Assembly: GCA_000004985.1 (NCBI GenBank)
Contig: GG738898.1
DNA length: 64,000 bases
Reading direction: 5' to 3' (one strand)
Source: Naegleria gruberi
Taxonomy: Eukaryota
Shown: positions 1 to 64,000 of the stretch, one piece after another
Layout: every line of letters starts with the position of its first letter
Numbering within the stretch: position 1 is the stretch's first letter
Translations under genes and position numbers: made by a program
Notes under the pieces: generated by a model
What the model was told of the DNA's origin: nothing
Databases searched by the model: none
Seen by the model: only the letters and a program-made list of their open reading frames with translations

Positions 1-167
1 TAATGGATATATTTTTTAATTTCATTTCATCAACTAATTCAAATGCCTTTGTTAAATTTCCTATTTTTTTATAAAATATTAAATTATAAAATTAAATTAA
101 TAATATTAAAATTAAAATAATAAATAATAAAATTAATAAAATATTAAAATTAAAATAAAAATAAAAC

Positions 168-1147
168 AAACCTTCATGTGTAAAACCAGTAATTAAAGAA
201 TTATAATAACCATCAAAATCTTCATTACAATAATCTTTAAAAAATTGAAAAGCCTTTTCAATATTACCTTCCTTAATAAAACCTTCAATAATAATATCTT
301 TTGTTAAAGTAGGTGGTTTCATACCATATTCAGTTGACATTTGATTAAATAATTCCATTGCCATACTCATATCATTAATTAAAGCATAACCTCTAATTAA
401 AGTAGTAAATGTAAATTCATCAGGTGGAACTAAAACTTGATCAGATTCATCCATCCAATTAAATAATTCCATTGCTCTTTTCATTACAACTAAATTATGT
501 TCACATGTTGGATTAAATACTTTAATTTCTTTAATTAATCCATTTAATACTACTGTAAATGCTGATGTTCCTATATATGGTGCTGTTTGTCCATGTTCAT
601 TCTTGGCATTTCTTAAAAAATTAATTGCACCTGTTACATCACCTGTATTTATAATTATTTGTAATAATTTTGTAATTTTAGGTTTTAATTTTAATTGTAA
701 AACTATATTTTCACTTGATAATCCCATTTCATTACAATTATCAATACGTTTCTTTAATAATTTTAATAATGTTCTAGCTGTTTCAATATCTCCTACTTCT
801 TTTATAGTTTCAACTAATTTATCTAATAATGTTTCAACAACACGTAATTGTGTTTTACTTCCCTTTTCATTGGCTTTTAGAAAGAATTTAACTTCTCTAT
901 AAACTTCAAATAATGGTGATTGTTGTTTACCATCTTGATATAATTTATTAGAATTAATAATGGATCCTTCTTTTTTCATTCTTCTATAAAATTCTAATGT
1001 ATTCATAATTTCATTACGTTTTTTTAATACTTGTTCATAATTTTCAAATGTTGTTATTGTTGCTTCATTAGTTGTTGTAGTTGTAGTAGAAAAAGTAGAA
1101 GTAGAATCATCATCATCATCATTATCATCATTCATATTATTTGTAGT

Positions 1148-1178
<31 letters not shown>

Positions 1179-1231
1179 GAATTATAAAGGCTTTGAGAGG
1201 AAGGCTTGTTATTATTTCTAAAAGCCTTTAA
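168..1231 (-). CDS. Pentatricopeptide-repeat (PPR) protein, partial. The N-terminus is lost in the gap at 1232-2704, and the C-terminus probably continues past a GT donor near 167 out of the window.
   Basis: Minus-frame translation shows degenerate ~35-aa helical repeats, e.g. 'TLIRGYALINDMSMAMELFNQMSTEYGMKPPTLTKDIIIEGFIKEGNIEKAFQFF'. The track ORF 92..3436 artificially fuses it through the N-run to the PMS1 C-terminal domain. Confidence 0.55.
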
Positions 1232-2704
1232 NNNNNNNNNNNNNNNNNNNNNNNNNNNNNNNNNNNNNNNNNNNNNNNNNNNNNNNNNNNNNNNNNNNNN
1301 NNNNNNNNNNNNNNNNNNNNNNNNNNNNNNNNNNNNNNNNNNNNNNNNNNNNNNNNNNNNNNNNNNNNNNNNNNNNNNNNNNNNNNNNNNNNNNNNNNNN
1401 NNNNNNNNNNNNNNNNNNNNNNNNNNNNNNNNNNNNNNNNNNNNNNNNNNNNNNNNNNNNNNNNNNNNNNNNNNNNNNNNNNNNNNNNNNNNNNNNNNNN
1501 NNNNNNNNNNNNNNNNNNNNNNNNNNNNNNNNNNNNNNNNNNNNNNNNNNNNNNNNNNNNNNNNNNNNNNNNNNNNNNNNNNNNNNNNNNNNNNNNNNNN
1601 NNNNNNNNNNNNNNNNNNNNNNNNNNNNNNNNNNNNNNNNNNNNNNNNNNNNNNNNNNNNNNNNNNNNNNNNNNNNNNNNNNNNNNNNNNNNNNNNNNNN
1701 NNNNNNNNNNNNNNNNNNNNNNNNNNNNNNNNNNNNNNNNNNNNNNNNNNNNNNNNNNNNNNNNNNNNNNNNNNNNNNNNNNNNNNNNNNNNNNNNNNNN
1801 NNNNNNNNNNNNNNNNNNNNNNNNNNNNNNNNNNNNNNNNNNNNNNNNNNNNNNNNNNNNNNNNNNNNNNNNNNNNNNNNNNNNNNNNNNNNNNNNNNNN
1901 NNNNNNNNNNNNNNNNNNNNNNNNNNNNNNNNNNNNNNNNNNNNNNNNNNNNNNNNNNNNNNNNNNNNNNNNNNNNNNNNNNNNNNNNNNNNNNNNNNNN
2001 NNNNNNNNNNNNNNNNNNNNNNNNNNNNNNNNNNNNNNNNNNNNNNNNNNNNNNNNNNNNNNNNNNNNNNNNNNNNNNNNNNNNNNNNNNNNNNNNNNNN
2101 NNNNNNNNNNNNNNNNNNNNNNNNNNNNNNNNNNNNNNNNNNNNNNNNNNNNNNNNNNNNNNNNNNNNNNNNNNNNNNNNNNNNNNNNNNNNNNNNNNNN
2201 NNNNNNNNNNNNNNNNNNNNNNNNNNNNNNNNNNNNNNNNNNNNNNNNNNNNNNNNNNNNNNNNNNNNNNNNNNNNNNNNNNNNNNNNNNNNNNNNNNNN
2301 NNNNNNNNNNNNNNNNNNNNNNNNNNNNNNNNNNNNNNNNNNNNNNNNNNNNNNNNNNNNNNNNNNNNNNNNNNNNNNNNNNNNNNNNNNNNNNNNNNNN
2401 NNNNNNNNNNNNNNNNNNNNNNNNNNNNNNNNNNNNNNNNNNNNNNNNNNNNNNNNNNNNNNNNNNNNNNNNNNNNNNNNNNNNNNNNNNNNNNNNNNNN
2501 NNNNNNNNNNNNNNNNNNNNNNNNNNNNNNNNNNNNNNNNNNNNNNNNNNNNNNNNNNNNNNNNNNNNNNNNNNNNNNNNNNNNNNNNNNNNNNNNNNNN
2601 NNNNNNNNNNNNNNNNNNNNNNNNNNNNNNNNNNNNNNNNNNNNNNNNNNNNNNNNNNNNNNNNNNNNNNNNNNNNNNNNNNNNNNNNNNNNNNNNNNNN
2701 NNNN

Positions 2705-5132
2705 TTCTTTTTTTAATTTTTCATAATTAAATTTTTCATCACAAGCATGTTGATCTAAAATGTACAAATCATTTCTAAATATAGTAAGTATAAAACTCTT
2801 ATTAAATTGTCCTATAATTTGCATTTGTAAAAAATCTTGTTTTTTAATGGTACGTTTGGTTTCTTTTTCATTTTTAATATTTTTAATTTCAATTTTATTT
2901 TCATTTAAATTTTCAATTTTTCTCTTTTTAATATTTTTATAAATATTTAATAAATTATTTTCAATTTCATTTTCAATGGTTATATTTTTAAAATTATTAT
3001 TATTATCAATTAATTTTACATTATTTACTTCTTCATCTAAATCATCAAATTTGATTCTTGTTACTGCTAATTTCCTTTTTGGTGCAATTACTTTTTTAGT
3101 AGTTTTATTTATATTTAAATCTTCTTGTGAAGATTCTGATGATTCATTTTCATATAAATCTTTTAATTTATCATAAATTTTATTTTCATTATTTTTAATA
3201 TTAGATTTTAATTTATTTATTTTATTTTTAGTAGATTTATTTTCTTGAATATTATTTGTATTATCTAATATATTATTATTATCATTTATATTTATATTTA
3301 TATTTATATTTTCATTTTCATTTATATTTATATTTTCATTGTTATTTTCATTTTCGTTATTTTTAATATCAAATATGGAATCATTAATTATTTTACTTTC
3401 ATTATTTAAATTATTATTTAAATTATTATTAATCATTAAAGATTGTAATGAAATTGGAGTTTTTTCATTTGAATATTGTGAATTATTACTATTTATAGAA
3501 ATTGGAGATAATTCAGTAGATAAATTATAAACTCTCTTATTTGGATCTAATAATAAATTTAATTCATATTTTAATAATTGTATTATACCTTGTTCAGATA
3601 TTAAATATATTGTTCTTTTATCAGGTGTTACATTTATATCTATATTATTACTATTTATAGAAATATTTAATACAAATATAGGATATTGATTTCTATTAAA
3701 TTCTTTATATATTTCATTTATACATTTAGTTATTTTAGGTAAATCAACTGGTCCTAATTATTTTAAAATATAAATTATTAAAATATAAATTAAATTTAAA
3801 TATAAAAATATAAATTATTAAATAAATAAAAAAATAAAAAAACATACTATTATTTACATATAAAAATTGTCTATCATTTGAAGATCTTCCACATCCCTTT
3901 TCAGGTAAAGAAATAAAACCATTAATTTTAATAAAATGTGGATCATTTTGAATAAAATCAACTTTTTGTAATTTTTTAAAATCCTTCAATCCAAAAATGG
4001 AAACATAATTATCTTTTAAAGATTTACCATGTGATGTAAAAATATTTTCAAAATTATTATTTTTAAAATTACTAACAATAAAAGTAATATTATTAATTAA
4101 AGAATATGAATATACTATATTTATACATTTTGAAAATTCTCTTTTTAAATTTTTTGTAAAATCTTTATGTCGAACTGGAAAATTTTTAAATAAATTTAAA
4201 ACTTTAATTGTAGTTCCATTTTTAGAACGTAATAATTGTTCAATTTTAGTAATATTTTGATCATGATCATAATAAATTAAATTTCCTAATTTATCACTTT
4301 CTGTTTTTGTAAATATTTGTAATTCTGCCATACATGAAATTGAAGATAAGGCTTCTCCTCTAAATCCAAATGTAGAAATATTTTCCAAATCTGTAAAATT
4401 AATTAATTTAGAAGTATTATGTTTTTTAACAATATTTTCAAAATTATTTTTAGAAATTCCATTTCCATTATCAGAAACTTCAATACATTCTAATCCCATA
4501 TTTGTAAATTTAATTTCTATAAAAGTAGATGATGCATCTAATGAATTTTCAATTAATTCTTTAATTACACTTGTTAATGAAATTATAACTTGACCACTAC
4601 ATATTCTATGAATAGAATTATTACTTAATTTAGATATTATTGATTTTGATTGAAATATTTCTTCATTTGTTATTTCTTCTTCTTCTTCATCTTTATTATT
4701 TTCATCATTATTTTCAATAGGATCTTCATCATTATTATTTTCATCATTGTTATTTTCATCATCATTGTTATTATCCTCAGGTAATGGTATTACTGTTATA
4801 TTATTATTAGATTGATTTAATTTATTGTTATTAGTAGATGATGATGATGATGGAGATGAAATTAATTGATTAAATAATGAAAATGAACGATTATTATTAT
4901 TATTATTGGATGAAGATGATGATGATGATGCTATTGATGATGTAGAGGATGAAGATTGTGGTGTAGTAGTAATACATGATGATGATGAAGATGAAATCGG
5001 AGATGGTGAAGGAGATAATTCTGAAGCTATTAAATTACTTGTATTTGCTTTTCTTTTGATTGTGAGTGTTGATGTTGTCTTTTTGGTAGTGTTGTTGATG
5101 TTATTATTGTTGTTGGGTACAAGTGATGACAT
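2705..5132 (-). CDS. PMS1: DNA mismatch repair protein, PMS1/PMS2-type MutL homolog. Exon 1 is 5132..3848, intron is 3847..3754 (GTATGT...AG), exon 2 is 3753..>2705. The C-terminus is truncated by the gap.
   Basis: N-terminal GHKL ATPase motifs are 'KELIENSLDA', 'IEVSDNGNGI' and 'GFRGEALSSI'. The exon junction recreates the conserved 'DRQFLYVNN|RPVDLPKI...YPIFVLNISINSNNIDINVTPDKR', which closely matches human PMS2. The MutL C-terminal dimerisation motif 'LDQHACDEKFNYEKL' lies at 2710-2760. A long Asn/Ser-rich low-complexity linker separates the two domains. Confidence 0.9.
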
Positions 5133-5221
5133 TTTTAAATTACTAGTTATTAGTTGATTTTCCTTGTGACAATGAAAATAACGTGTTTAAATTTCTTTTT
5201 TTACAACTTTCAAGAAAAAAT

Positions 5222-5257
5222 TATCGCGATCTACAGGACTCGAACCTGTGCGGGTCT
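5222..5257 (-). tRNA. Truncated tRNA 3' half (T-arm plus acceptor 3' strand). The 5' part is missing in the 50-N gap at 5258-5307.
   Basis: Minus-strand 'ACAGGTTCGAGTCCTGT' is a perfect 5-bp T-stem with a GTTCGAGTC T-loop, followed by a 7-nt acceptor strand 'AGATCGC' and a discriminator. The anticodon is not visible, so identity is unknown. Confidence 0.5.
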
Positions 5258-5307
5258 NNNNNNNNNNNNNNNNNNNNNNNNNNNNNNNNNNNNNNNNNNN
5301 NNNNNNN

Positions 5308-6300
5308 CATTTCAGATTCATCCAATTATAGAATTAGAACTATTTTCCCAAATGGTACAATTTCAACATTTGCTGGAAATGGAATTGCTAATTTAGGACA
5401 AGATGGAGTATTAGCAACAAGTACTTCAGTTGCCATTCCAGGTTATATGGCACAAAGTTCATTGAATGGAGATGTCTATTTTGCAACAACTGTTGTTTCT
5501 TCAGTGAGAAGGATTAATACAAATAATCTAATTACAACAATTGCTGGTAATAATCAAATTGCATATAGTGGTGATGGTGGATTAGCTATTGCTGCTTCAT
5601 TTAGAATTCCATATGGTGTTGCTCTTGGAATGAATGGTGAATTGTTCATTACTGATACTAATAATAATGTTATTAGAAAGGTTTCGTCTACAATTGGAAT
5701 TATTACAACCATTGCTGGAAGTGTAACAGGTGGATATAGTGGAGATGGTGGATTGGCCATTGCTGCTAAACTATCTAGTCCTTATGGAATTGTGGTTGAC
5801 CAATTGAATGGTACAATTTATGTTTGTGATTTTGGGAATTCTCGTGTTCGTAAATTAGTGCCATATTGTACTAAGGGAACATTAGTGAATGGTAATTGTG
5901 TATATCCTGTATGTTATGATTTGGATTTTGATGATGTGAGAGTTTGTTCAGGTCATGGAAATTGTCAAAGTTCAAATCATTGTAATTGTCAAGAGGGTTG
6001 GAATGGAAGTTTAAATTGTTCAATATTTTCATGTGAAAGTATTGGAAATTGTAATGGAAATGGAAAATGTATTTCCAATAATACATGTGAATGTCAATCA
6101 GGATGGAATTCTACATTTGATTGTTCACAATTTGAATGTAATGACCTTAATAATTGTAATGGAAATGGTCAATGTATTTCTAATAGTACATGCGAATGTC
6201 AATCAGGATGGAGAGGAAATTCACAATGTTCTGCTACCAGTTGTGATGCTCTTTCTCAATGTAATGGAAATGGAAAATGTATTTCTAATAACACATGTGA
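5308..6300 (+). CDS. NHL-repeat / EGF-like (tenascin-type) repeat protein, teneurin-like. It is partial at both ends because of gaps at 5258-5307 and 6301-7225.
   Basis: Repeated 'YSGDGGLAIAA...PYGV' NHL blades. At least four tandem ~32-aa Cys-rich units 'CNGNGKCISNNTCECQSGWNS...C' are encoded by ~96-nt DNA repeats from ~5990 to 6300. Confidence 0.7.
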
Positions 6301-7225
6301 NNNNNNNNNNNNNNNNNNNNNNNNNNNNNNNNNNNNNNNNNNNNNNNNNNNNNNNNNNNNNNNNNNNNNNNNNNNNNNNNNNNNNNNNNNNNNNNNNNNN
6401 NNNNNNNNNNNNNNNNNNNNNNNNNNNNNNNNNNNNNNNNNNNNNNNNNNNNNNNNNNNNNNNNNNNNNNNNNNNNNNNNNNNNNNNNNNNNNNNNNNNN
6501 NNNNNNNNNNNNNNNNNNNNNNNNNNNNNNNNNNNNNNNNNNNNNNNNNNNNNNNNNNNNNNNNNNNNNNNNNNNNNNNNNNNNNNNNNNNNNNNNNNNN
6601 NNNNNNNNNNNNNNNNNNNNNNNNNNNNNNNNNNNNNNNNNNNNNNNNNNNNNNNNNNNNNNNNNNNNNNNNNNNNNNNNNNNNNNNNNNNNNNNNNNNN
6701 NNNNNNNNNNNNNNNNNNNNNNNNNNNNNNNNNNNNNNNNNNNNNNNNNNNNNNNNNNNNNNNNNNNNNNNNNNNNNNNNNNNNNNNNNNNNNNNNNNNN
6801 NNNNNNNNNNNNNNNNNNNNNNNNNNNNNNNNNNNNNNNNNNNNNNNNNNNNNNNNNNNNNNNNNNNNNNNNNNNNNNNNNNNNNNNNNNNNNNNNNNNN
6901 NNNNNNNNNNNNNNNNNNNNNNNNNNNNNNNNNNNNNNNNNNNNNNNNNNNNNNNNNNNNNNNNNNNNNNNNNNNNNNNNNNNNNNNNNNNNNNNNNNNN
7001 NNNNNNNNNNNNNNNNNNNNNNNNNNNNNNNNNNNNNNNNNNNNNNNNNNNNNNNNNNNNNNNNNNNNNNNNNNNNNNNNNNNNNNNNNNNNNNNNNNNN
7101 NNNNNNNNNNNNNNNNNNNNNNNNNNNNNNNNNNNNNNNNNNNNNNNNNNNNNNNNNNNNNNNNNNNNNNNNNNNNNNNNNNNNNNNNNNNNNNNNNNNN
7201 NNNNNNNNNNNNNNNNNNNNNNNNN

Positions 7226-7777
7226 TGTGATATTGATAGAAGTGAAGGTTATTGTTTACAATTAGTAGACACACCAGGTCAGGAAGAGTAAGTTTAATGA
7301 TTCATTCTCAACCCTTTAATCATTGAATTATTATTATTACTCAGTTATGACAGATTAAGACCTTTATCTTATGATAAACCATCCAAATGTCACATTTTTA
7401 TAATGTGCTATGCAATATCGAGTCCAGTAATGATGATTAAGTGTTTGGAGGATTTTTCTGATAGATTTCTTCCAGAAATTCAATCATTTTTGGATTACAA
7501 CAGGTCAGTGTTGGTAGTTGGAACAAAATCTGATATTTGTGATTATTCAAAAACAGGAGATTTTCGTTTGGGAAAATATTGGAATAGTTATTTGTGTAAA
7601 AAGTATGATTCGTATGGAAAGAAACTGTCTCAGTGGATGGGTGCTGTGAGTTATGTTACAACATCTTCGAGAGAGTTTGTTGGACTGGAAGAATTGGAAG
7701 ATTTAATTGTCAAGACGTTTATCTATTCGAAACTTATCAAAGCTCCAAACAAAAAGGAAAAATGCATATTGTGCTAA
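7226..7777 (+). CDS. Divergent Rho-family small GTPase, 3' part only. Exon is ..7287, intron is 7288..7344 (GTAAGT..CAG), exon is 7345..7777. The N-terminus is in the gap.
   Basis: Splicing gives '...CLQLVDTPGQE|DYDRLRPLSYDKPS...', a Rho switch-II variant with DTPGQE instead of DTAGQE. The C-terminus ends '...KKEKCILC', a CaaX-like box. The track ORF 5183..7291 is an artificial fusion with the NHL gene across the N-run. Confidence 0.75.
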
Positions 7778-7874
7778 GATTCTTTCATCCAATCTTAGCT
7801 TAAAAGAAATTAATACAATAATAGCTGTCACTCATCTGCAGATAAAATTTCAAAGAGTGAATAGTACGGTTTTG

Positions 7875-9638
7875 CTATTTGATTTTAAAGAACGAAATTT
7901 CAGAACAACAATCTATAGCCAAGGCAATCAAATCCATCTGTAGAAATAGAGTATTATCAAATTTGATTGTTGAACTGTTAAATTTTCGTGCTAATTCAAA
8001 GTAATCCTCTTTGTCAACTCCACACATCATTTTCCTATACTTCTCAACAAGGATATTATCAATAAGTTTAGTTTGAGGATGAATGATTGATTTTTGAATC
8101 AATTCTTCATAAATCATTTCAAAGTTAATAAGATATGTTGAACGGTTATGCTGAATGATAATGGATTCAGATAGTGTCAATTTTGAAATGAATTCTGAAA
8201 ATTTTAAACTCTTTGTTTTCAAAAAACCATCTTTGAGTGATTCTTTGTAATGTAAATAAACTGGAAAATCATAATTATTCGAAACTTCTGATTTTCTTAC
8301 ATAGATGCAAACTTGATATTTTTCATCCTCCATTTCTTCATTACTTTCTCCGATTACAATAACATCATCATGTTCATCTGGAATTTCAAAATACTCATTT
8401 TCAAAGTCCAATTGAAAGCATTTAGTAATTTCCTTATCAAAAAACCACAATTTCTTATTTCCAAAATCAATATCTTTTAAAAATTGCAAACATTCTGGCA
8501 TCACACTCTCACCATATTCTCTTATTATTAATGAGGGAAATTTAACACTCAATTTTGCAAGAGAAAGACATGATTCTCTTGTGAGTGGCACATTTTCAAC
8601 ACTGGTTTCAATAATAAATTGAGCAACATTGCAACTATCAGCACTATGGGTAGGAGAAAAGTACAACCTTTTGAAATTATTATCAAAATGAGCAACATTT
8701 AAATATTTAGAAACAGTAAAAGTATGTAACAAATTATTTGTTTTCTTTTCATATAAATAAGCTTCTCCATTCCTTGTCAAGCTAATGAAATAATGTTCAT
8801 AATATGGAATTATTGACACAATTGCTTCATCAAATGTGTCAATTTTAATTTCAATTCCAGATTTTTCATCCTTCAAGATTAAATAATGTAATTGTTCGTA
8901 ACCATTAAGTATATCTTTAAATAAAAGATATAACTGTCCCTCCTTTTCATCCACATGTAATACATCAACAATAGTATAATTTGGTTGATTTAGTTTAATT
9001 TCTCTTATTTTTGATCCATTCAATAAATCCATTACATAGATTGTATTAATATTATGTCTGATATATAGTTCATTCTTTGATTTAGCACAACACATTTCAT
9101 AGTGTGAACTAATCTTACTTTCCCAAATAGGAGATTCTGTTGAATAATCCGTCACATGATCTAATATTTTAAATTTCTTAATAATACCACCTCTTGCTCC
9201 AATATAAACATTCTCAAATTGACTGTCAATCAGATATGAACTATATAATGGTAATTTAAATTTAAGTTTCCATGATTTACATTCTGAATCAAACACATAA
9301 CATTGATTCTTGGTAGTTATGGCAATTATTAAATTATTTAATTGATTAGTTGTAACAGTAGTAATATATGAAATGGTATCATCAAGTTTTGGGAGTGTAT
9401 AATCTATTTTATGGAAATTAATATGGAGTACTTTAACTTTGTTTCCTCCGAGTTGATCTTTCAAGCCTTGAGGAATTTTTAATAAATTATCGGATAGAAT
9501 TAGTTTTACTAATTCTTGTTCATGATCTACTTGATGTTCTTCTTTTTGTGGAATTTCACATATTGTTTCAGATTTAAGCTTTTTGAAGTGATGATCAATT
9601 GAATTACTAATTTCTGGCAGTCCAGACTTTCTCTTCAT
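7875..9638 (-). CDS. Hypothetical protein of 587 aa with no recognisable motif, possibly beta-propeller-like.
   Basis: Long uninterrupted ORF with moderate AT content and coherent codon usage. Confidence 0.6.
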   Translation of the reverse strand: MKRKSGLPEISNSIDHHFKKLKSETICEIPQKEEHQVDHEQELVKLILSDNLLKIPQGLKDQLGGNKVKVLHINFHKIDYTLPKLDDTISYITTVTTNQLNNLIIAITTKNQCYVFDSECKSWKLKFKLPLYSSYLIDSQFENVYIGARGGIIKKFKILDHVTDYSTESPIWESKISSHYEMCCAKSKNELYIRHNINTIYVMDLLNGSKIREIKLNQPNYTIVDVLHVDEKEGQLYLLFKDILNGYEQLHYLILKDEKSGIEIKIDTFDEAIVSIIPYYEHYFISLTRNGEAYLYEKKTNNLLHTFTVSKYLNVAHFDNNFKRLYFSPTHSADSCNVAQFIIETSVENVPLTRESCLSLAKLSVKFPSLIIREYGESVMPECLQFLKDIDFGNKKLWFFDKEITKCFQLDFENEYFEIPDEHDDVIVIGESNEEMEDEKYQVCIYVRKSEVSNNYDFPVYLHYKESLKDGFLKTKSLKFSEFISKLTLSESIIIQHNRSTYLINFEMIYEELIQKSIIHPQTKLIDNILVEKYRKMMCGVDKEDYFELARKFNSSTIKFDNTLFLQMDLIALAIDCCSEISFFKIK

Positions 9639-10293
9639 TTTTTTTGTAGTTTTTAATATTAAAAAATAATACCAAAATAAAGATCAGCAAGGCTACACTT
9701 TTAAAAAGCAATAAATAAACTCGCTTGTTAGCTATCTTTATTCTTCAATAACCTGAACAAACAAGATTCGTCCAAGAACTCTTGAATTCACTGTTCATAC
9801 AGTCAAAGACTGTAGCGGGATTGTCGCCATATTCCTGGCAGGCTTCCCGTCTAAATCATTAAGTNNNNNNNNNNNNNNNNNNNNNNNNNNNNNNNNNNNN
9901 NNNNNNNNNNNNNNCTCCACACTTTTAGTTTCAAATTGACTGATTTGCTGAGACCTCAATTGAGTGATGAGGAATTACTGTCCATTGATTTTGAAAATAA
10001 CTCACCATATTCGTATGTGGTTAATGTAACTTCACATGAGGGCTCACACCACACTTTAAACTGATTTCCACATTCAAACCAATCTTTCTAAGGCATCCCT
10101 CAACATGTTGACGCATTCAGCCGCTAATCAACTTGCCAAACAAGGAATATTGATTAAATGTATTGATGGTGCTTACAGAATTTTACATCCAATCCTCACC
10201 AATTCCACCAGTTATGGTAAATTATTCAAAGACTATAAAGTTGTTGAGTGGTAGCTTTGCTTGTACTGGCAAGAAACTTAGCAAATTATTAGT

Positions 10294-11969: not shown

Positions 11970-12362
11970 TGAATCAAGTGAAATCTTAATTGTATCTCTA
12001 ATAATGGAATTAGCTGTTTACCTCCATGANNNNNNNNNNNNNNNNNNNNNNNNNNNNNNNNNNNNNNNNNNNNNNNNNNGATGATCAATTATTCCATCCT
12101 TTTATTGGTTAAAAATATTAGTCTAATATCATTTCTATTGATTCAATAGATTAACAAGTATTCCAGTGTAATAAGTATTCACACTTGCTCTCCCAATTTC
12201 TCCTTATTAAATCCACCAATTAATTCAAAACTTTGAAATACGTGTTTTCATTACAATATCAGTTCATCCTCAGTCAACTTGAAGTAACTTTTTCTATTAA
12301 TAAAAAATTCTCTTTTAAAAAAAAATAATCATTATTCCGATCTTAAAATTCTCATCATCAAA

Positions 12363-26501: not shown

Positions 26502-27077
26502 TGATTCAAAGGAAAAATCATTGGGANNNNNNNNNNNNNNNNNNNNNNNNNNNNNNNNNNNNNNNNNNNNNNNNNNNNNNNNNNNNNNNNNNNNNNNNNN
26601 NNNNNNNNNNNNNNNNNNNNNNNNNNNNNNNNNNNNNNNNNNNNNNNNNNNNNNNNNNNNNNNNNNNNNNNNNNNNNNNNNNNNNNNNNNNNNNNNNNNN
26701 NNNNNNNNNNNNNNNNNNNNNNNNNNNNNNNNNNNNNNNNNNNNNNNNNNNNNNNNNNNNNNNNNNNNNNNNNNNNNNNNNNNNNNNNNNNNNNNNNNNN
26801 NNNNNNNNNNNNNNNNNNNNNNNNNNNNNNNNNNNNNNNNNNNNNNNNNNNNNNNNNNNNNNNNNNNNNNNNNNNNNNNNNNNNNNNNNNNNNNNNNNNN
26901 NNNNNNNNNNNNNNNNNNNNNNNNNNNNNNNNNNNNNNNNNNNNNNNNNNNNNNNNNNNNNNNNNNNNNNNNNNNNNNNNNNNNNNNNNNNNNNNNNNNN
27001 NNNNNNNNNNNNNNNNNNNNNNNNNNNNNNNNNNNNNNNNNNNNNNNNNNNNNNNNNNNNNNNNNNNNNNNNNNNNA

Positions 27078-28499: not shown

Positions 28500-29448
28500 T
28501 TATTGCCTCTTATATTTAATGATATATTCAGGATAACATTGATATCTATCATAAACAATTAATTCTCTATATGCACTATTTGATGCATTTGAGTTTCCAA
28601 TTACACTATCAAAGACTCTTCTGTTAGTACCGTTAATTTCTGGAGGTCTTCTTTCATTTGTCATTCTTTTAGGTGTGTAATAGATTTGTCTTCCCAATAA
28701 AACTCTGCATAAGAATAGAGAATATTCATTATTTCGATCTGGAGTACAATATTGATCACTTTTAGAACAATATTCTGCAAAATAAACTCCAGCTCCAAAT
28801 AAACCTCCCAAACTTGCAACTCTTTCATCAAATCCATGCTCTGAAATGCTTGAAATAAATTCTGGTTTTGTTCCATGCCATAAATATTTTTCATTCATTC
28901 CACCATTCAATCCAACTGTTTTCATCCACTCAAAGGATTTACTTGTTTTTGCTAATTGTTCTGTTTGAACTTGGATTGAGTTCAGGGGATCTTGATAAGA
29001 TGTCAAATGATTCATTCTTGATTTATATGAAGTGAAAAGTGATGCATTTTCAATTCTTGAAACACTTGAAACAACCATTTTGGAATAGTTCATTCTCACT
29101 TGTTGATCTCTTCCACTTCCAAGAGTTGTTGAATTACAAGAAATATCAATTACACCTTGAATAGTATTCTTCAAATATTTTGTAACATCCACAATGTAAT
29201 ATCTTTTAGAATAGGATGTAAATGTATTTCTCTTCCAATAACTTGGCAAGACAATATTCAATTGTTTGGATTTAGATTCTTCCAAATCCATTTCCATTGT
29301 TTGTAATTTCTTTTCCTTAATTTTCAATTTGCTGATTTGATTGGAAATTTCTTCTCTTTTTTTGACACTTTGATTGGTGAATTCTTTTGTTTTCTGTTCA
29401 AGATTCTTAATTTTTTCTTGAAGATTGAGTTTATCTTGATTAAAGATN
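28500..29448 (-). CDS. Poly(ADP-ribose) polymerase catalytic-domain protein, C-terminal part. It continues 5' through the gap at 29449-30718, and the likely N-terminal 'MSLVSSEDLFYSL...' lies at 30859..30719.
   Basis: H-Y-E PARP signature: 'LWHGTKPEFISSISEHGF', 'GAGVYFAEYCSKSDQYC', 'LFLCRVLLGR', 'YRELIVYD'. The upstream part is coiled-coil 'NQDKLNLQEKIKNLEQK'. Confidence 0.82.
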
Positions 29449-31419
29449 NNNNNNNNNNNNNNNNNNNNNNNNNNNNNNNNNNNNNNNNNNNNNNNNNNNN
29501 NNNNNNNNNNNNNNNNNNNNNNNNNNNNNNNNNNNNNNNNNNNNNNNNNNNNNNNNNNNNNNNNNNNNNNNNNNNNNNNNNNNNNNNNNNNNNNNNNNNN
29601 NNNNNNNNNNNNNNNNNNNNNNNNNNNNNNNNNNNNNNNNNNNNNNNNNNNNNNNNNNNNNNNNNNNNNNNNNNNNNNNNNNNNNNNNNNNNNNNNNNNN
29701 NNNNNNNNNNNNNNNNNNNNNNNNNNNNNNNNNNNNNNNNNNNNNNNNNNNNNNNNNNNNNNNNNNNNNNNNNNNNNNNNNNNNNNNNNNNNNNNNNNNN
29801 NNNNNNNNNNNNNNNNNNNNNNNNNNNNNNNNNNNNNNNNNNNNNNNNNNNNNNNNNNNNNNNNNNNNNNNNNNNNNNNNNNNNNNNNNNNNNNNNNNNN
29901 NNNNNNNNNNNNNNNNNNNNNNNNNNNNNNNNNNNNNNNNNNNNNNNNNNNNNNNNNNNNNNNNNNNNNNNNNNNNNNNNNNNNNNNNNNNNNNNNNNNN
30001 NNNNNNNNNNNNNNNNNNNNNNNNNNNNNNNNNNNNNNNNNNNNNNNNNNNNNNNNNNNNNNNNNNNNNNNNNNNNNNNNNNNNNNNNNNNNNNNNNNNN
30101 NNNNNNNNNNNNNNNNNNNNNNNNNNNNNNNNNNNNNNNNNNNNNNNNNNNNNNNNNNNNNNNNNNNNNNNNNNNNNNNNNNNNNNNNNNNNNNNNNNNN
30201 NNNNNNNNNNNNNNNNNNNNNNNNNNNNNNNNNNNNNNNNNNNNNNNNNNNNNNNNNNNNNNNNNNNNNNNNNNNNNNNNNNNNNNNNNNNNNNNNNNNN
30301 NNNNNNNNNNNNNNNNNNNNNNNNNNNNNNNNNNNNNNNNNNNNNNNNNNNNNNNNNNNNNNNNNNNNNNNNNNNNNNNNNNNNNNNNNNNNNNNNNNNN
30401 NNNNNNNNNNNNNNNNNNNNNNNNNNNNNNNNNNNNNNNNNNNNNNNNNNNNNNNNNNNNNNNNNNNNNNNNNNNNNNNNNNNNNNNNNNNNNNNNNNNN
30501 NNNNNNNNNNNNNNNNNNNNNNNNNNNNNNNNNNNNNNNNNNNNNNNNNNNNNNNNNNNNNNNNNNNNNNNNNNNNNNNNNNNNNNNNNNNNNNNNNNNN
30601 NNNNNNNNNNNNNNNNNNNNNNNNNNNNNNNNNNNNNNNNNNNNNNNNNNNNNNNNNNNNNNNNNNNNNNNNNNNNNNNNNNNNNNNNNNNNNNNNNNNN
30701 NNNNNNNNNNNNNNNNNNCAATTGTGAAGTATCCTCATGTGTAATATTCAATCCTTCAATAACTACAATATATTGATGACTGTAAAATGAATAGAAATCT
30801 CTTGGCCTTCGTTTATAACTAAGGGAATAAAACAAATCTTCACTCGAAACCAGTGACAAACGATGTGCATTGTGCCTTCTTTTGAAATTAAGGGAAAAGC
30901 CACTAACTATGGCACCAATTTGTTCTTCCTTTCCACTACCTTCATCAAATCTCTAAATACGCATAGAGACCTTCCTCTCAATGTTGTACACCTCGATATT
31001 ATATCCACGATGATGATCTTTACTATTGATAGTTGTCATGTTTTTTTAAGATTGTGTTTATTTTTAAAACATTTGTCGACCTTAATATATCTTAATACAT
31101 TTGTGAAACATAGAAAATTGTTTGCAAAATCACAAAAATAATTGCATTCTAAATTTGTTTTTTGTTCTTGAATCAATTAAGAGAAATGATCAGTTTCTGT
31201 CTTTTGAAAGGTTATGTTGTCTTGAGGATAATAGAAATGATTATCAACTGATACATCACTGTGTTAAATACAACAATACCTCAAGTCACCAATTTTCGAA
31301 AACAACACCTTATTCATCTTTCTAAATAAGTATACTTCCACATTAATCACTGTGATTATCCGACTCCTCCTAACCAACTCATGAGTTGAAGATCAACCAT
31401 TAACCACAAAGCTTGAAAA

Positions 31420-32510
31420 ATGCGTCAATTACGTGTATCAATATCTCAACCTCAACAAGTTGTTGTGCATCGACCTTCTTATCAAACTCTTCCTCCTAAA
31501 CAATCAGTCATCAATAAGAAGAGAGATCGAAATGTTTTATTGATGGAATATTATTCATCAGCCTATATTCGACCTAGTAAATATTTGCTATTAAGCAGAG
31601 AGGATGTTGAAGAAACTGGTGATGAAGACAATATTTCTTCTCATCATCAGGAAGAAACTAATTTGAATGAAAGTCTTCTCGTTTACACTAATATTGAACA
31701 AGAATCAGCTTTAAATAGAAGAGGTCTGTTGCATGTTGGTGAAGATTGCCTTTCGATTATTGCCAAGTACATGCGAATAGATGAAATGTACACATGTATA
31801 CAAACATGCAAAGCTTGGGGAAGAATGTTACTTCCCACCTTTATGTTATTATCAGAGGAAACTTTAGAATATGAAGAACACTTGCTGGACTTACTCACCT
31901 ATGGTTTGAAAGTGGACAATAATCCATTGGATTTTGCTTCAGAAGGAGTGTTTTCTGAGCATGCTACATGGAAACCACATTTATGTTATCTTGAACAACA
32001 AGAAGTTGCACCATTCGAAGGAAATTTTGAAGAGGAAGAGGTCGTAGAGCATAAAGATTTACAAATTTGTAGGATTAATCTTCCCTTTGGTAGTCCTCTA
32101 TGTAAGGGAACAATAACAGAACAATTCGAATTGATACAAGATGAAGTAAATGTAGATAGCTATCGGGAGGTGGTGAATGAACATCTTGGTATTCCAATAG
32201 AAGAACAATGAAGTTATGAATTTACTCCTTTCGTATTCTATGATGAGATTAAGAGGGAGAAGGAAATGATGCTTCCCTATGTTAAGGAAATTCAACAATC
32301 ACTGATTGCTCATTATGAAGATCATTATAATGAGATGACCAATGAACAGAGATCTTCTCCCTCAATGACATTTTATGGATTAAGACTGGGTATTATGCAT
32401 CTCTTAAAGAGAGGAGGTGTAATGTTCTTTGAACCCAATGTAGTTGAAGATGCTCTCTATCAATTAAAAGCAATCATTTATTTGGTAATTAAGGAAGCTT
32501 ATGAAAGTNN
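31420..32510 (+). CDS. Hypothetical F-box-like protein (31420..32211, possibly continuing in 32266..32510 before the gap).
   Basis: 'LLHVGEDCLSIIAKYMRIDEMYTCIQTCKAWGRMLLP' fits the F-box consensus; the 3' structure is unresolved. Confidence 0.5.
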
Positions 32511-32813
32511 NNNNNNNNNNNNNNNNNNNNNNNNNNNNNNNNNNNNNNNNNNNNNNNNNNNNNNNNNNNNNNNNNNNNNNNNNNNNNNNNNNNNNNNNNN
32601 NNNNNNNNNNNNNNNNNNNNNNNNNNNNNNNNNNNNNNNNNNNNNNNNNNNNNNNNNNNNNNNNNNNNNNNNNNNNNNNNNNNNNNNNNNNNNNNNNNNN
32701 NNNNNNNNNNNNNNNNNNNNNNNNNNNNNNNNNNNNNNNNNNNNNNNNNNNNNNNNNNNNNNNNNNNNNNNNNNNNNNNNNNNNNNNNNNNNNNNNNNNN
32801 NNNNNNNNNNNNN

Positions 32814-34167: not shown

Positions 34168-34561
34168 ATGCGTTTTAACAAATTTGGTATTTAATTAAAT
34201 TGAATTGAACATTACACCTGTCTGAAATTGCTTGTGAAAGTTCTGAATATTCTTATATCTAGAATTGTATTCTCAATTTTTCAGTATTCGATACCTTATT
34301 TAAATTAGATTCTTCCTCACTAAAAACTTTCATATTTCCTCTTTAATATCTTTCAAAGAATCCGAAAGATATCCAAACATCCCTTAACAAGTAAGATTTG
34401 TTGGGCGACGAATTGTATGTAAAGGTGTTGGTTGACCAATAGAAACATCTGTTCCATCCTTGTAGTGATGAAGATTGATTGTCAGCAATTTTGTGGAATG
34501 ATATGTTTTTCNNNNNNNNNNNNNNNNNNNNNNNNNNNNNNNNNNNNNNNNNNNNNNNNNN

Positions 34562-35033: not shown

Positions 35034-36955
35034 ATGTCAGTAAAAGGATTCTCACCATCATTATCATCGATCACTAACACATTGATGATCATTTTGATGA
35101 TGATTAATTTATTATCAATGGTTCATTCATCATTGTGTGCATCATCATCATCATGGACACAAAAACATGGTGATTTCTACATGTCCAATTCCATTCCTGA
35201 TTTTCCACTTTCCCATTCATCATGGATTAGTATGAATTCTCCGATGCTTACCAAGATGAATTTGAAACTTGATTCTACATCATTGATATTTGCAAATGCA
35301 CCATTGAGTGGTAAATTATTGATGGTTCTTGATGATGATAATCAACAATTGGTGATCGCAAGTATTAATTGTACTAGCGGAGTATTTAATATTGAAAGAA
35401 ATTTGACAAGTGTTTATCCTGGAACGAAGAGAGTTNNNNNNNNNNNNNNNNNNNNNNNNNNNNNNNNNNNNNNNNNNNNNNNNNNNNNNNNNNNNNNNNN
35501 NNNNNNNNNNNNNNNNNNNNNNNNNNNNNNNNNNNNNNNNNNNNNNNNNNNNNNNNNNNNNNNNNNNNNNNNNNNNNNNNNNNNNNNNNNNNNNNNNNNN
35601 NNNNNNNNNNNNNNNNNNNNNNNNNNNNNNNNNNNNNNNNNNNNNNNNNNNNNNNNNNNNNNNNNNNNNNNNNNNNNNNNNNNNNNNNNNNNNNNNNNNN
35701 NNNNNNNNNNNNNNNNNNNNNNNNNNNNNNNNNNNNNNNNNNNNNNNNNNNNNNNNNNNNNNNNNNNNNNNNNNNNNNNNNNNNNNNNNNNNNNNNNNNN
35801 NNNNNNNNNNNNNNNNNNNNNNNNNNNNNNNNNNNNNNNNNNNNNNNNNNNNNNNNNNNNNNNNNNNNNNNNNNNNNNNNNNNNNNNNNNNNNNNNNNNN
35901 NNNNNNNNNNNNNNNNNNNNNNNNNNNNNNNNNNNNNNNNNNNNNNNNNNNNNNNNNNNNNNNNNNNNNNNNNNNNNNNNNNNNNNNNNNNNNNNNNNNN
36001 NNNNNNNNNNNNNNNNNNNNNNNNNNNNNNNNNNNNNNNNNNNNNNNNNNNNNNNNNNNNNNNNNNNNNNNNNNNNNNNNNNNNNNNNNNNNNNNNNNNN
36101 NNNNNNNNNNNNNNNNNNNNNNNNNNNNNNNNNNNNNNNNNNNNNNNNNNNNNNNNNNNNNNNNNNNNNNNNNNNNNNNNNNNNNNNNNNNNNNNNNNNN
36201 NNNNNNNNNNNNNNNNNNNNNNNNNNNNNNNNNNNNNNNNNNNNNNNNNNNNNNNNNNNNNNNNNNNNNNNNNNNNNNNNNNNNNNNNNNNNNNNNNNNN
36301 NNNNNNNNNNNNNNNNNNNNNNNNNNNNNNNNNNNNNNNNNNNNNNNNNNNNNNNNNNNNNNNNNNNNNNNNNNNNNNNNNNNNNNNNNNNNNNNNNNNN
36401 NNNNNNNNNNNNNNNNNNNNACTTTCCAATGATTGTAAGGTGGCTATTATTGATTTGGAAATGGAGACCATTATTGTGGATGGAAAGAGACAAGCCAATG
36501 TTAAAATTGATCGATCCCTAACGGAACAATCTGCAATTGTTACAGTAAGTTTATTTATTTATGCAATACTTAATGTTATGATGAAATTAAAGTATTACGG
36601 AGCTAAAGTTATTAAAATGTGTGATAAAACATTATCAAACACAGTCAATATCACAGATTTGATAAGAAATGAAAATTTAGGACATTTATCACTTGGCAAT
36701 TTTGAGCATTTTGTTTACAATGTTTTGGATGAAAAGGTTTACAGTGGAAAAAAAACTTTAACTGAGACATTTATTTGTAAAATTGAAAGTAATGGTAAAA
36801 TTGTTGGCAAAATTCAAAGACCCAAGTCAAATTTGATAGAAATTGAATTTCCATCAACTCCAAACTATAGACACAAAGCACTAGTGTTGGCACTTGCCTT
36901 ATTTTGTTTTGCAACATCAGGTGGTGGTGGTGTCGTCTTCCCAATGATCATTTAA
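35034..36955 (+). CDS. Hypothetical membrane/secreted protein interrupted by the gap at 35436-36420. The 3' part 36440..36955 ends in a hydrophobic tail. There is a candidate in-frame 48-nt intron at 36546..36593.
   Basis: N-terminal signal-anchor 'LMIILMMINLLSMVHSSLCA' and C-terminal 'ALVLALALFCFATSGGGGVVFPMII'. Confidence 0.45.
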
Positions 36956-41344: not shown

Positions 41345-42043
41345 NNNNNNNNNNNNNNNNNNNNNNNNNNNNNNNNNNNNNNNNNNNNNNNNNNNNNNNN
41401 NNNNNNNNNNNNNNNNNNNNNNNNNNNNNNNNNNNNNNNNNNNNNNNNNNNNNNNNNNNNNNNNNNNNNNNNNNNNNNNNNNNNNNNNNNNNNNNNNNNN
41501 NNNNNNNNNNNNNNNNNNNNNNNNNNNNNNNNNNNNNNNNNNNNNNNNNNNNNNNNNNNNNNNNNNNNNNNNNNNNNNNNNNNNNNNNNNNNNNNNNNNN
41601 NNNNNNNNNNNNNNNNNNNNNNNNNNNNNNNNNNNNNNNNNNNNNNNNNNNNNNNNNNNNNNNNNNNNNNNNNNNNNNNNNNNNNNNNNNNNNNNNNNNN
41701 NNNNNNNNNNNNNNNNNNNNNNNNNNNNNNNNNNNNNNNNNNNNNNNNNNNNNNNNNNNNNNNNNNNNNNNNNNNNNNNNNNNNNNNNNNNNNNNNNNNN
41801 NNNNNNNNNNNNNNNNNNNNNNNNNNNNNNNNNNNNNNNNNNNNNNNNNNNNNNNNNNNNNNNNNNNNNNNNNNNNNNNNNNNNNNNNNNNNNNNNNNNN
41901 NNNNNNNNNNNNNNNNNNNNNNNNNNNNNNNNNNNNNNNNNNNNNNNNNNNNNNNNNNNNNNNNNNNNACATTTATCGTGTTCTGATTTCTAGAAAAAAC
42001 GAATGATATTGATTTACTGAAAGATTAATATTATTATCCAATA

Positions 42044-48485: not shown

Positions 48486-48519
48486 TGGAGTCATAGGGAA
48501 TCGAACTAGACCTTCTGCA

Positions 48520-48550
<31 letters not shown>

Positions 48551-48556
48551 AACCCC
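48486..48556 (-). tRNA. tRNA-Ala (anticodon UGC), Pol III gene with a T5 terminator immediately downstream at 48485..48481. The T-arm is atypical.
   Basis: Minus strand 5'-GGGGTTA TA GCTC AGTTGGTA GAGC G TCTGC TTTGCAT GCAGA AGGTCTAGTTCGATTCCCTA TGACTCC A-3'. The acceptor has the Ala identity pair G3:U70. The D-arm and anticodon arm match eukaryotic tRNA-Ala. The T-arm as written gives only a 3-bp stem, so it is either a sequence error or a pseudogene variant. Confidence 0.75.
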
Positions 48557-56879: not shown

Positions 56880-58218
56880 TCACCTAATAAATTTATTCAT
56901 TATATCTAACATTATTGAAGCAATTTGATTGAATGCTTTATTGTATTCTTCCTTCTTTTCCAGGTATTGATTTTGGGAAGGATTAAGGTCGCTAAGAAAT
57001 GCATACATGCACATCATCAGTTCAATCAAGCGGTATATGAGATGTAAATCTTGAATGGATGATAGTAAAGGTTCAACTCGCTCAATTAATACTGTCAGAA
57101 CAGCCTTTCTTTTTGTTTCTTCTTTCAAGAATGTTAAAGAACTATGTAAAATAATATTGAAGAACGGAGCTGTTCTATGAATAATTCGAACAAGTAACTG
57201 GTTCATGATTCTAATACACTCAAATGTTAATACCTCCAACTTGTCAATTACCGGAGTGAGGTCATTTAACTGAAGTAATGGACTTGCAATATTATGAATG
57301 GCAAATAGCCTTCCTTCATCATCTAGATTCATCTCTCTAATATTTACCGATACATACAGTAAATTTAATGATGTGGGGTTATTTTCTGCCAATTCAATAA
57401 GATCAATAAGCTCTTTAGGTTGTTTCAGAGCTTGGTTAATCTCTGATAAAATTCTTGCTAACTCTATTGACACTTCCATGTCAAACCCTGCAAAACATCG
57501 CATATGTTCACTCCTCAACATGGAAATAATACCTTCAGTATCTATTAATTGTCTAGGTGCACCTAATAATAAGGAGGAAACAAACAGCTCCAACTTATTC
57601 AGTGGAATAATTTCCATAAAATCTCGTAGCCATAACCAATATGAGGTATCTTCAATAAAGATTGCTGAAGAAAAAGAGAGGCATTCGTAGGCCATTTCCA
57701 AGTGTTTGTCCCTTTCGGTGCAATGATAAGCTTTGAATATATGTATCATGCCATTGACAAAATACTCGAACTGGTGTGGGATGTTAACAGTGAATGTTAG
57801 GGAAAACAGAGCATTCACGAAATGTATTGCTTACAGACTTCAACTCTTCCCAGATAAGGGATTCGGATTGGTTAGAATGTTCTTCAATTAAATTAACAAC
57901 AGACACTTGTGTAAGTTCCATCCAAACAGTTTTTGTTTCTCCGTTAACATGCTGCAACACTTTGGTAGGATCATTGCTCACTTCTTCCACTACTGTGTTT
58001 CCATGCACTTTCATTGCCTTTATCAAAAATAGTAGAGAAGTTAATTCTTTATGTTGGTTCTTAGTGTGTAGATGAACAGCTAGTTGATACAAATCCTGGT
58101 CTTCCACTTCCTCAATCACTTTTTCTACAAATAACCTATCTAATACACGTATAGGATGAGAAAATTGTGGTTTTAAATATGTGGTGATGAGTTCAAGAGA
58201 TTTTATCATTTTTTTCAA
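56880..58218 (-). CDS. Hypothetical helical-repeat protein. Two frame-shifted ORFs (58218..57784 and 57818..56880) are probably one gene with a frameshift or unrecognised intron.
   Basis: The ORFs are contiguous and co-oriented and overlap by 35 nt; no motif is recognisable. Confidence 0.45.
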
Positions 58219-58433: not shown

Positions 58434-59612
58434 ATGTTACAAGACATGCCAGAGATTCCCATCGATGACTTTGATGAGGAACAATCAACACAAGAAACAT
58501 CAACAAACTTTGACAGAAGCAAGACAAATAAGAAGAAGAAACTTCATGATAGAGATGTCTATCAACTCGTTGCCAAGTATCCGAGTGCTAAAGAGAAGTC
58601 ATCTGGAGGTGGTTCTAATAGGAGATGGGTTGAGGGAGTGACAATGGTTTTTGCTCAGGAGAAGATTGATGGTTCTCAACTCTCTGTTAAACGAATGTAT
58701 AAGGATGAGATGGAATTGGTGGAGAAGAATAGTTGTTGTGGAAGGGATGATGATGATGAGGAGGAAGGAGATTCGGAAAATGTAGTGGAAACACCAAGTT
58801 CTCTTCCAGAATTTGTAAAGGACACTGATAGAGAAACACAACTTGTGTTTAGGTCAAAGAGAGGTCCAATTGGTTGTGATACTTTCTTTGGAGATGCTGT
58901 TCGTTCAGTTTCGACACTTGCTGATTTATTGAGGCCGAATTGGACCTATAGAGGTGAAACTGTAACACGATTGAGACATACTAGAATTTTATATGGTAGA
59001 ATTCCAAAACATTCATTTGTGTTATTCGAAATTCAAAATGAAAAGGGCCACTATTTGCCTCCAAATTTAATTCAAGAAGAAGCTGAAAGAATTGGTTTTG
59101 AATATTCTCAAATTTTATATCAAGGCATTCTGGATTTTAAGAAATTGAAAGAAGTTGCAAATAATTCCAAATCTCAACTTGGTGGTTTTGCAATGATTGA
59201 AGGTATTGTGACAAAAATGTACAAAAATGGTAAAATGTCATCCTTCAAATTAGTTGCCAAACAATACAAGGAAACAAAAACCAAGAAAATCATGAAGATT
59301 AATGAATTCTCAGAATTAGATAAGAAATTAAAAGTAATTGCAAAGGGAGTGTGCACTAGGTCAAGATGGGAAAAGGCAATTTTCAGATTTTTGGAAAATG
59401 GAGGTGAGAAAAAGGATTCAGATTTGGGAGGTAAAATTTCTCTTGAAATTAAGAACGATATCATGAAGGAAGAAACGGAAACAGTTATTCGATTGTTGAA
59501 AGAGAATGATATTGAGTACACTGATACCATTCTCAATGTTATTCTGGAACATGCAGTGGATGGAGCCAAAGATTGGGCCAAAGATTTTGTCAAAAACCTC
59601 GACAATGTCTAA
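58434..59612 (+). CDS. ATP-dependent polynucleotide ligase-like protein (RNA-ligase-type covalent nucleotidyltransferase).
   Basis: Motif I 'VFAQEKIDGSQLSV' (KxDG), motif IV-like 'MIEGIVTKMY' and motif V-like 'FKLVAKQYKETK', with an acidic N-terminal extension. Confidence 0.6.
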   Translation: MLQDMPEIPIDDFDEEQSTQETSTNFDRSKTNKKKKLHDRDVYQLVAKYPSAKEKSSGGGSNRRWVEGVTMVFAQEKIDGSQLSVKRMYKDEMELVEKNSCCGRDDDDEEEGDSENVVETPSSLPEFVKDTDRETQLVFRSKRGPIGCDTFFGDAVRSVSTLADLLRPNWTYRGETVTRLRHTRILYGRIPKHSFVLFEIQNEKGHYLPPNLIQEEAERIGFEYSQILYQGILDFKKLKEVANNSKSQLGGFAMIEGIVTKMYKNGKMSSFKLVAKQYKETKTKKIMKINEFSELDKKLKVIAKGVCTRSRWEKAIFRFLENGGEKKDSDLGGKISLEIKNDIMKEETETVIRLLKENDIEYTDTILNVILEHAVDGAKDWAKDFVKNLDNV

Positions 59613-63248: not shown

Positions 63249-64000
63249 TNNNNNNNNNNNNNNNNNNNNNNNNNNNNNNNNNNNNNNNNNNNNNNNNNNN
63301 NNNNNNNNNNNNNNNNNNNNNNNNNNNNNNNNNNNNNNNNNNNNNNNNNNNNNNNNNNNNNNNNNNNNNNNNNNNNNNNNNNNNNNNNNNNNNNNNNNNN
63401 NNNNNNNNNNNNNNNNNNNNNNNNNNNNNNNNNNNNNNNNNNNNNNNNNNNNNNNNNNNNNNNNNNNNNNNNNNNNNNNNNNNNNNNNNNNNNNNNNNNN
63501 NNNNNNNNNNNNNNNNNNNNNNNNNNNNNNNNNNNNNNNNNNNNNNNNNNNNNNNNNNNNNNNNNNNNNNNNNNNNNNNNNNNNNNNNNNNNNNNNNNNN
63601 NNNNNNNNNNNNNNNNNNNNNNNNNNNNNNNNNNNNNNNNNNNNNNNNNNNNNNNNNNNNNNNNNNNNNNNNNNNNNNNNNNNNNNNNNNNNNNNNNNNN
63701 NNNNNNNNNNNNNNNNNNNNNNNNNNNNNNNNNNNNNNNNNNNNNNNNNNNNNNNNNNNNNNNNNNNNNNNNNNNNNNNNNNNNNNNNNNNNNNNNNNNN
63801 NNNNNNNNNNNNNNNNNNNNNNNNNNNNNNNNNNNNNNNNNNNNNNNNNNNNNNNNNNNNNNNNNNNNNNNNNNNNNNNNNNNNNNNNNNNNNNNNNNNN
63901 NNNNNNNNNNNNNNNNNNNNNNNNNNNNNNNNNNNNNNNNNNNNNNNNNNNNNNNNNNNNNNNNNNNNNNNNNNNNNNNNNNNNNNNNNNNNNNNNNNNN

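Follow-up and report, generated by a model that had tools for sequence, protein, structure and literature searches.

A predicted stand-alone RNA ligase of divergent Rnl2-like type in Naegleria gruberi

RNA ligases are unusually numerous in Naegleria, and their biological roles are unknown (PMC4408790). In N. gruberi, Unciuleac and Shuman (2015) listed 13 ATP-dependent candidates: seven Rnl1, five Rnl2 and NgrRnl (PMC4408790). NgrRnl (Rnl5; PDB 5COT) is defined by an N-terminal OB domain and has no C-terminal appendage. T4 RNA ligase 2 (Rnl2; PDB 1S68, 2HVQ and 2HVR) and the kinetoplastid RNA-editing ligase TbREL1 (PDB 1XDN) both represent the Rnl2 family, and REL1 is a mitochondrial enzyme that acts via OB-fold partner proteins (PMC4599027). 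Here we describe a further candidate, encoded within a stretch of 64,000 nucleotides (the window) of N. gruberi contig GG738898.1 (assembly GCA_000004985.1). A first-pass annotation, made from the letters of the DNA, had called its product a stand-alone RNA-ligase-like nucleotidyltransferase, and this was borne out by profile searches, by a profile search of PDB and by two fold searches. T4 Rnl2 is among the closest known systems and provides the best likeness.

The open reading frame (ORF) comprises 392 codons from ATG, followed by a TAA stop, and thus encodes 392 amino acids including the start methionine (about 390 had been announced). A stop codon in the same frame (TGA) precedes it by 27 nt, and the twelve N-gaps of the window all lie outside the ORF. 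The product is 100% identical, over 392/392 residues, to XP_002672316.1/EFC39572.1 of N. gruberi (NAEGRDRAFT_81234, UniProt D2VU55), which confirms its eukaryotic origin and shows the window to be nuclear DNA of N. gruberi; the gene model already published consists of this same single exon. The databases label this protein as hypothetical or as 'RNA ligase domain-containing protein', and neither its locus tag nor its accessions are mentioned in the searchable literature. It is not among the accessions of the 13 listed candidates (PMC4408790), nor is it the Naegleria protein of the Diplonema DpRNL study, which is XP_002674912.1. Judged by these accession lists, it would raise the number of ATP-dependent ligase candidates in N. 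gruberi to fourteen. The five listed Rnl2 paralogues and XP_002674912.1 are likewise uncharacterised PF09414-type candidates from the same genome. The GC content at third codon positions (GC3) of the gene is 0.30, against 0.285–0.325 in the neighbouring genes, and the GC content by codon position is alike as well; nothing in its composition therefore points to a recent acquisition. On these grounds, and because the N. fowleri assembly has an annotated orthologue, recent contamination or viral insertion was rejected.

The assignment to the RNA ligases was consistent across methods and far stronger than chance would give. Pfam PF09414 (RNA_ligase) matched residues 72–273, covering profile positions 3–170 of 171, with 31.5 bits (E = 2.4e-7; gathering cutoff, 27 bits), and a search of the PHROGs profiles returned phrog_548, 'RNA ligase', over residues 48–356 (E = 2.8e-18). 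No search placed the protein in an unrelated fold. Searches of NCBIfam, of the PADLOC defence models and, with the single sequence, of PDB yielded no match. The family profile, by contrast with the single sequence, retrieved from PDB NgrRnl (E = 2e-5), T4 Rnl2 (2.3e-5) and Pab1020 (4.5e-5), and two independent fold searches agreed with the profile searches in leading to ATP-dependent RNA ligases, not to DNA ligases or capping enzymes. The model has the nucleotidyltransferase (NTase) fold of the covalent nucleotidyltransferase superfamily. The description as stand-alone also held: neither the domain search nor the structure model contains an OB or DNA-binding domain, as announced, and no kinase, phosphatase or CPD healing domain is fused to the protein.

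Catalytic residues were located in alignments of 24, and then 121, sequences drawn from 182 relatives found in a database search (Table 1). Motifs Ia, III, IIIa, IV and V are all conserved and in canonical order. The KxDG and EGxVxK elements seen at first pass correspond to K77-I-D79-G80 (motif I) and E256-G-I-V-T-K261 (motif IV), with canonical spacing, and motifs III and IIIa, which had been named beforehand as decisive, are both present and conserved. In motif I, E76, K77, D79, G80 and S81 each occur in 120 of the 121 sequences, the remaining one being gapped. K77 aligns with K35 of T4 Rnl2 and K170 of NgrRnl, whereas D79 aligns with NgrRnl D172 and has H37 as its T4 counterpart. E175 pairs with T4 E99 and NgrRnl E227. 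F198, a position occupied by phenylalanine in 114 sequences and tyrosine in 6, pairs with T4 F119 and NgrRnl F248, the adenine-stacking residue. E256 pairs with T4 E204 and NgrRnl E312, K261 with T4 K209, and K272, the lone invariant lysine of motif V, with T4 K225 and NgrRnl K326. The product is very probably an active stand-alone ATP-dependent RNA ligase.

Table 1. Coordinates of the predicted ligase gene and of its domains and motifs in the window.
Feature	Position	Strand	Basis or remark
Complete single-exon RNA ligase gene (predicted)	58434..59612	+	ORF call; stop upstream; identity to NAEGRDRAFT_81234
N-terminal tail, predicted disordered	58434..58574	+	Residues 1-47; predicted local distance difference test score (pLDDT) <50 at residues 1-34
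NTase (adenylyltransferase) domain	58575..59279	+	Residues 48-282; PF09414 within
Motif I, E76-K77-I-D79-G80-S81-Q82	58659..58679	+	Alignment; K77 predicted AMP acceptor
Acidic low-complexity insert between motif I strand and motif Ia	58725..58832	+	Residues 98-133; low model confidence
Motif Ia, R140-S141-K142-R143	58851..58862	+	Family consensus R-S-K-G; R140-S141-K142 conserved
Motif III, Y172-R173-G-E175	58947..58958	+	E175 in 121/121
Motif IIIa, F195-V-L-F198-E199-I	59016..59033	+	Alignment
Motif IV, E256-G257-I-V259-T-K261	59199..59216	+	E256, G257 and K261 in 121/121
Motif V region, K272-L-V274 ... E280	59247..59273	+	K272, V274 and E280 in 121/121
All-alpha C-terminal domain, five helices	59295..59609	+	Residues 288-392

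The domain layout points towards Rnl2. The predicted secondary structure is mixed alpha/beta at residues 71–274, followed by five helices at 295–387; in the structure model an NTase domain specifically related to that of Rnl2 precedes an all-alpha C domain, the order characteristic of Rnl2. NgrRnl has the opposite layout to the disordered N-terminus, NTase domain and helical C domain of the new protein; a single-sequence search does not link the two, and the family profile matches only NTase residues 165–339 of NgrRnl. Membership in Rnl5 was rejected, as residues 1–34 are disordered where an N-terminal OB domain would lie and a helical domain of 105 amino acids follows the NTase domain. Other families fared no better. 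The PF09511 NTase domain combined with its own C domain, as in Rnl1 and Rnl6 (T4 Rnl1, fungal Trl1-LIG), was not found, nor was the succession of N-terminal, NTase, dimerisation and C-terminal domains of Rnl3 (Pab1020/MthRnl). A kinetoplastid-type editing ligase was also rejected, there being no sequence-level link: the family profile gave no significant match to TbREL1. The acidic N-terminus appears unlike a mitochondrial presequence. This N-terminal tail is eukaryote-specific, being absent from the phage and prokaryotic relatives; its acidic part is followed by a basic one (KTNKKKKL), which may resemble a nuclear localisation signal. The 36-residue acidic insert is found only in Naegleria and is longest in N. 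gruberi.

The C domain, of about 105 amino acids, carries a family signature (R311-W312-x-K314 ... D342 ... E346 ... G377 ... K383) and is probably a diverged form of the Rnl2 C domain. The alignment that HMMER makes with T4 Rnl2 continues unbroken into it, and so does a full-length hhalign comparison with a profile of ten phage Rnl2 proteins (97.4%, E = 9.6e-12), in the same register. Both place T4 R266 and D292, which form a salt bridge in the C domain of T4 Rnl2 (PMC4599027), on the family-invariant R311 and D342. When the C domain was searched alone, phrog_548, of which T4 and KVP40 Rnl2 are full-length members, was the sole match (E = 7e-4, profile positions 251–313; the T4 C domain occupies 246–340), and the same profile matched 28 of 32 isolated C domains of the family (best E = 3.8e-8). 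Foldseek scored full-length T4 Rnl2 at 2.5e-8 and its NTase domain alone at 5.6e-5, a roughly 1000-fold difference in favour of the former.

Several results weigh against an Rnl2-type C domain. A profile of the C domain only, searched against PDB, retrieved nothing relevant; Pfam T4_Rnl2_C touched 4 of the 32 members, at E ≥ 0.034; and C-domain-only hhalign against T4-like Rnl2 scored 20.0, while column-shuffled controls reached up to 24.3. Furthermore, phrog_548 may itself hold phage members of the subfamily, in which case the PHROG evidence would be partly circular. Outside the C domain, the K225-x-K227 pair of Rnl2 is incomplete: the position of T4 K227 is occupied by V274, invariant in 121/121 sequences. 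The 'KxK-like' motif V of the first-pass annotation was therefore loosely worded, its lysine (K272) being placed correctly and its second position not. Since the C-domain evidence is mixed and KxK is lacking from motif V, we classify the protein as Rnl2-like, on a divergent branch of the group that includes T4 Rnl2 (PF09414, phrog_548), and regard full membership of Rnl2, a family defined by its C domain, as possible.

Our preferred reading, which we hold with moderate confidence, is that the product belongs to the covalent nucleotidyltransferase superfamily and is an active, stand-alone RNA ligase, ATP-dependent and divergent Rnl2-like, which seals nicks by the classic three-step reaction. 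In the first step, K77 would attack the alpha-phosphate of ATP, giving ligase-(lysyl-N)-AMP and pyrophosphate. F198 would stack on the adenine, E175 bond to the ribose and K272 touch the phosphates, while D79, E175 and E256 would hold the catalytic metal via waters; these roles are transferred by alignment from F248, E227, K326, D172 and E312 of NgrRnl. AMP would then be passed to the 5'-phosphate end, and attack by the 3'-OH would form the phosphodiester and release AMP. By analogy with T4 Rnl2, the helical C domain may aid adenylylation and substrate binding. Its invariant R311 and D342 occupy the positions of the R266–D292 salt bridge. On this reading, the favoured substrate would be a nicked duplex, either all-RNA or RNA:DNA hybrid, with 3'-OH and 5'-PO4 ends, the 3'-OH being carried by RNA. 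The analysis itself demonstrates an intact gene under purifying selection, its fold and the conservation of its motifs; catalysis, the residue roles, the substrate and the part played by the C domain are inferred. That it works as a nick sealer of the Rnl2 kind we regard as somewhat better supported than otherwise.

To place the gene among its relatives, 1.84 billion representatives were searched exhaustively, with 1,069 sequences recovered at E ≤ 1e-3, 453 at E ≤ 1e-10 and three at E ≤ 1e-30. Most are about 300 amino acids long; they are mainly phage or prokaryotic and few are eukaryotic. The close eukaryotic set consists of N. gruberi, N. fowleri (two copies), a metagenomic contig with a Snf7 gene (P0002) and a 375-kb contig with typical eukaryotic genes (P0122; locus L108, GCA_041937235.1, JBEGDK010000082.1, 8001–8945), the orthologue of which has 314 amino acids and 40% identity. 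The two N. fowleri copies, P0003 (FDP41_009605) and P0004 (FDP41_008589), are near-identical and lie on different contigs; P0004 lacks the motif IIIa segment (columns ~217–238 of alignment A1), whether through an error in the gene model or because the duplicate is decaying. Other relatives come from scattered metagenome-assembled genomes (MAGs) of bacteria and archaea, in phyla unrelated to one another, and 224 from IMG/VR viral contigs. A tblastn search of 50,697 GenBank phage records gave no match at E ≤ 1e-3.

One viral relative deserves separate mention. On an AT-rich contig (GC 26–32%; P0020, locus L016, ENA ERZ22666121, Scaff1529696, 8001–8945), a homologue of 314 amino acids lies 392 bp from a gene on the opposite strand (2444–7609) for a family-B DNA polymerase of 1,721 amino acids, and a protein of >1,154 amino acids in which mRNA capping enzyme is fused to cap methyltransferase is encoded nearby. 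Together these features are a giant-virus signature. N. gruberi, N. fowleri and P0002 form a Naegleria clade in neighbour-joining trees, monophyletic in 100/100 bootstraps. When P0122 was left out, P0020 was its sole sister (90/100); when P0122 was included, it joined the Naegleria clade first (65/100), and the exclusive clade including the virus fell to 37/100. Because the support for P0020 depends on sampling in this way, acquisition by a viral route is plausible but not established.

An environmental allele (L109; ENA ERZ929261, 126–1295), from the metagenome PRJEB11402, is 98% identical to the gene, indicating that the sample contained N. gruberi itself or one of its closest kin. Its gene caller began at the second methionine, and the same upstream ATG is present. 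The two sequences differ by nine synonymous and five nonsynonymous substitutions, a ratio of nonsynonymous to synonymous rates (dN/dS) of ~0.14 from small counts; the disordered acidic insert accounts for three of the five replacements, and the motifs are free of them. Together, the low dN/dS and the persistence of the motifs in N. fowleri, at identities as low as 46%, favour an enzyme that is expressed and functional.

As eukaryotic gene order is uninformative, genomic context was surveyed at viral loci: the ORFs lying up to about 3 kb from the ligase were clustered at 80 IMG/VR loci, and the results are given as raw counts. Of the neighbours that recur, the majority are replication and recombination genes, with a DnaQ/RNase H-like exonuclease at 13/80 loci in addition to Pol A, DnaB and endonuclease VII. 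An RNA end-healing gene follows the ligase homologue at nine distinct loci of the 80. At five of these (L035, L089, L092, L096 and L097) it encodes a polynucleotide kinase/phosphatase of the T4 type, with HAD_PNKP (2e-50) and a P-loop kinase. At the other four (L028, L029, L041 and L079) the next gene after the ligase encodes a phosphatase, HAD_SAK, matching 'HAD domain of Swiss Army Knife RNA repair proteins' (5.5e-26). This minority of loci fits RNA end-healing and sealing, and suggests phage RNA-repair cassettes built on an uncharacterised ligase subfamily. At 14 prokaryotic MAG loci, no conserved partner gene was found among the immediate neighbours.

A different reading, unlikely in our estimation although the strongest competitor, is that the protein is an active RNA ligase of a separate clade outside Rnl1–Rnl6, with a C-domain fold of its own and possibly another substrate. 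Such an enzyme may, for example, mend single-stranded or stem-loop RNA together with a Pnkp-type healing enzyme, as T4 Rnl1 does with Pnkp on tRNA. Against this stand the C-domain matches to phrog_548 (28/32), the C-terminal part of which is the region of the T4 Rnl2 C domain, the unbroken full-length hhalign alignment, its register shared with HMMER and its placing of R266 and D292 on invariant residues, and the ~1000-fold better Foldseek score of full-length T4 Rnl2. In its broadest form, which we likewise hold to be improbable, the Naegleria protein and roughly 1,000 phage, prokaryotic and giant-virus relatives would constitute a seventh, unnamed RNA ligase clade, with its own C fold, a single motif V lysine, phage Pnkp/HAD partners and lateral gain by heterolobosean amoebae, possibly via a giant virus. 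The signature of such a clade would read RWxKA...DIG...D...E...GxxEWYK; the name 'Rnl6' is already taken by the Trl1 clade.

The prevalence of replication and recombination genes (with a DNA methylase also among them) around phage and prokaryotic homologues, and the DNA polymerase adjoining the giant-virus-contig homologue, would be expected of a minimal DNA ligase sealing nicks in replication or repair. We consider this very unlikely: no OB-fold domain lies C-terminal to the NTase domain, and DNA ligases score lower in the fold comparisons. It is still harder to regard the gene as a non-catalytic relic, whether a pseudoenzyme or a decaying gene of lateral origin. Its long disordered N-terminal tail, the acidic insert inside the catalytic domain, the scarcity of eukaryotic relatives, a nearest non-eukaryotic relative that is viral and the N. 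fowleri copy lacking the motif IIIa segment could all be read in that sense, but the ORF is intact with every catalytic residue kept, dN/dS is low with most replacements in the disordered insert, orthologues at 46–54% identity retain all motifs, and codon-position GC is that of the neighbouring genes. The Rnl2-like RNA ligase thus remains the reading we prefer.

The gene adds a candidate missing from the published N. gruberi ligase inventory; its value is incremental and current understanding stands. It belongs, moreover, to a large, mostly phage subfamily of which no member has been characterised biochemically or structurally. Characterisation could show whether an Rnl2-type enzyme works with a single motif V lysine, could settle whether its C domain arose by remodelling of the Rnl2 module or represents a new module, and may supply a further nick-sealing ligase for molecular biology.

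As for the rest of the window, its N runs lie at 1232–2704, 5258–5307, 6301–7225, 9865–9914, 12030–12079, 26527–27076, 29448–30718, 32509–32813, 34512–34561, 35436–36420, 41345–41968 and 63250–64000. The apparent GC content of 10–17% in 1–4000 and 6001–8000, like the 10–13% seen where the window begins, is an effect of these runs, not biology, and artefactual long ORFs span the gaps, for example at 29337–30776 and 35034–36521. A further 'ORF' of 1,114 amino acids (92–3436, minus strand) is an artefact bridging the gap at 1232–2704 and probably represents two separate genes: its upstream part has a MutL/PMS1-like C-terminal motif (QIIGQFNKSFIL...LYILDQHACDEKFNYE), and the part after the gap has a helical-repeat (PPR/TPR-like) appearance. 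Upstream of the ligase gene, the neighbour at 56880–58218 (minus strand) consists of overlapping ORFs in different frames (56880–57818 and 57784–58218), which may be one gene with a short intron or a frameshift. Rfam (52.5 bits) and ARAGORN agree on a single tRNA-Ala gene (anticodon TGC) at 48486–48556 on the minus strand.
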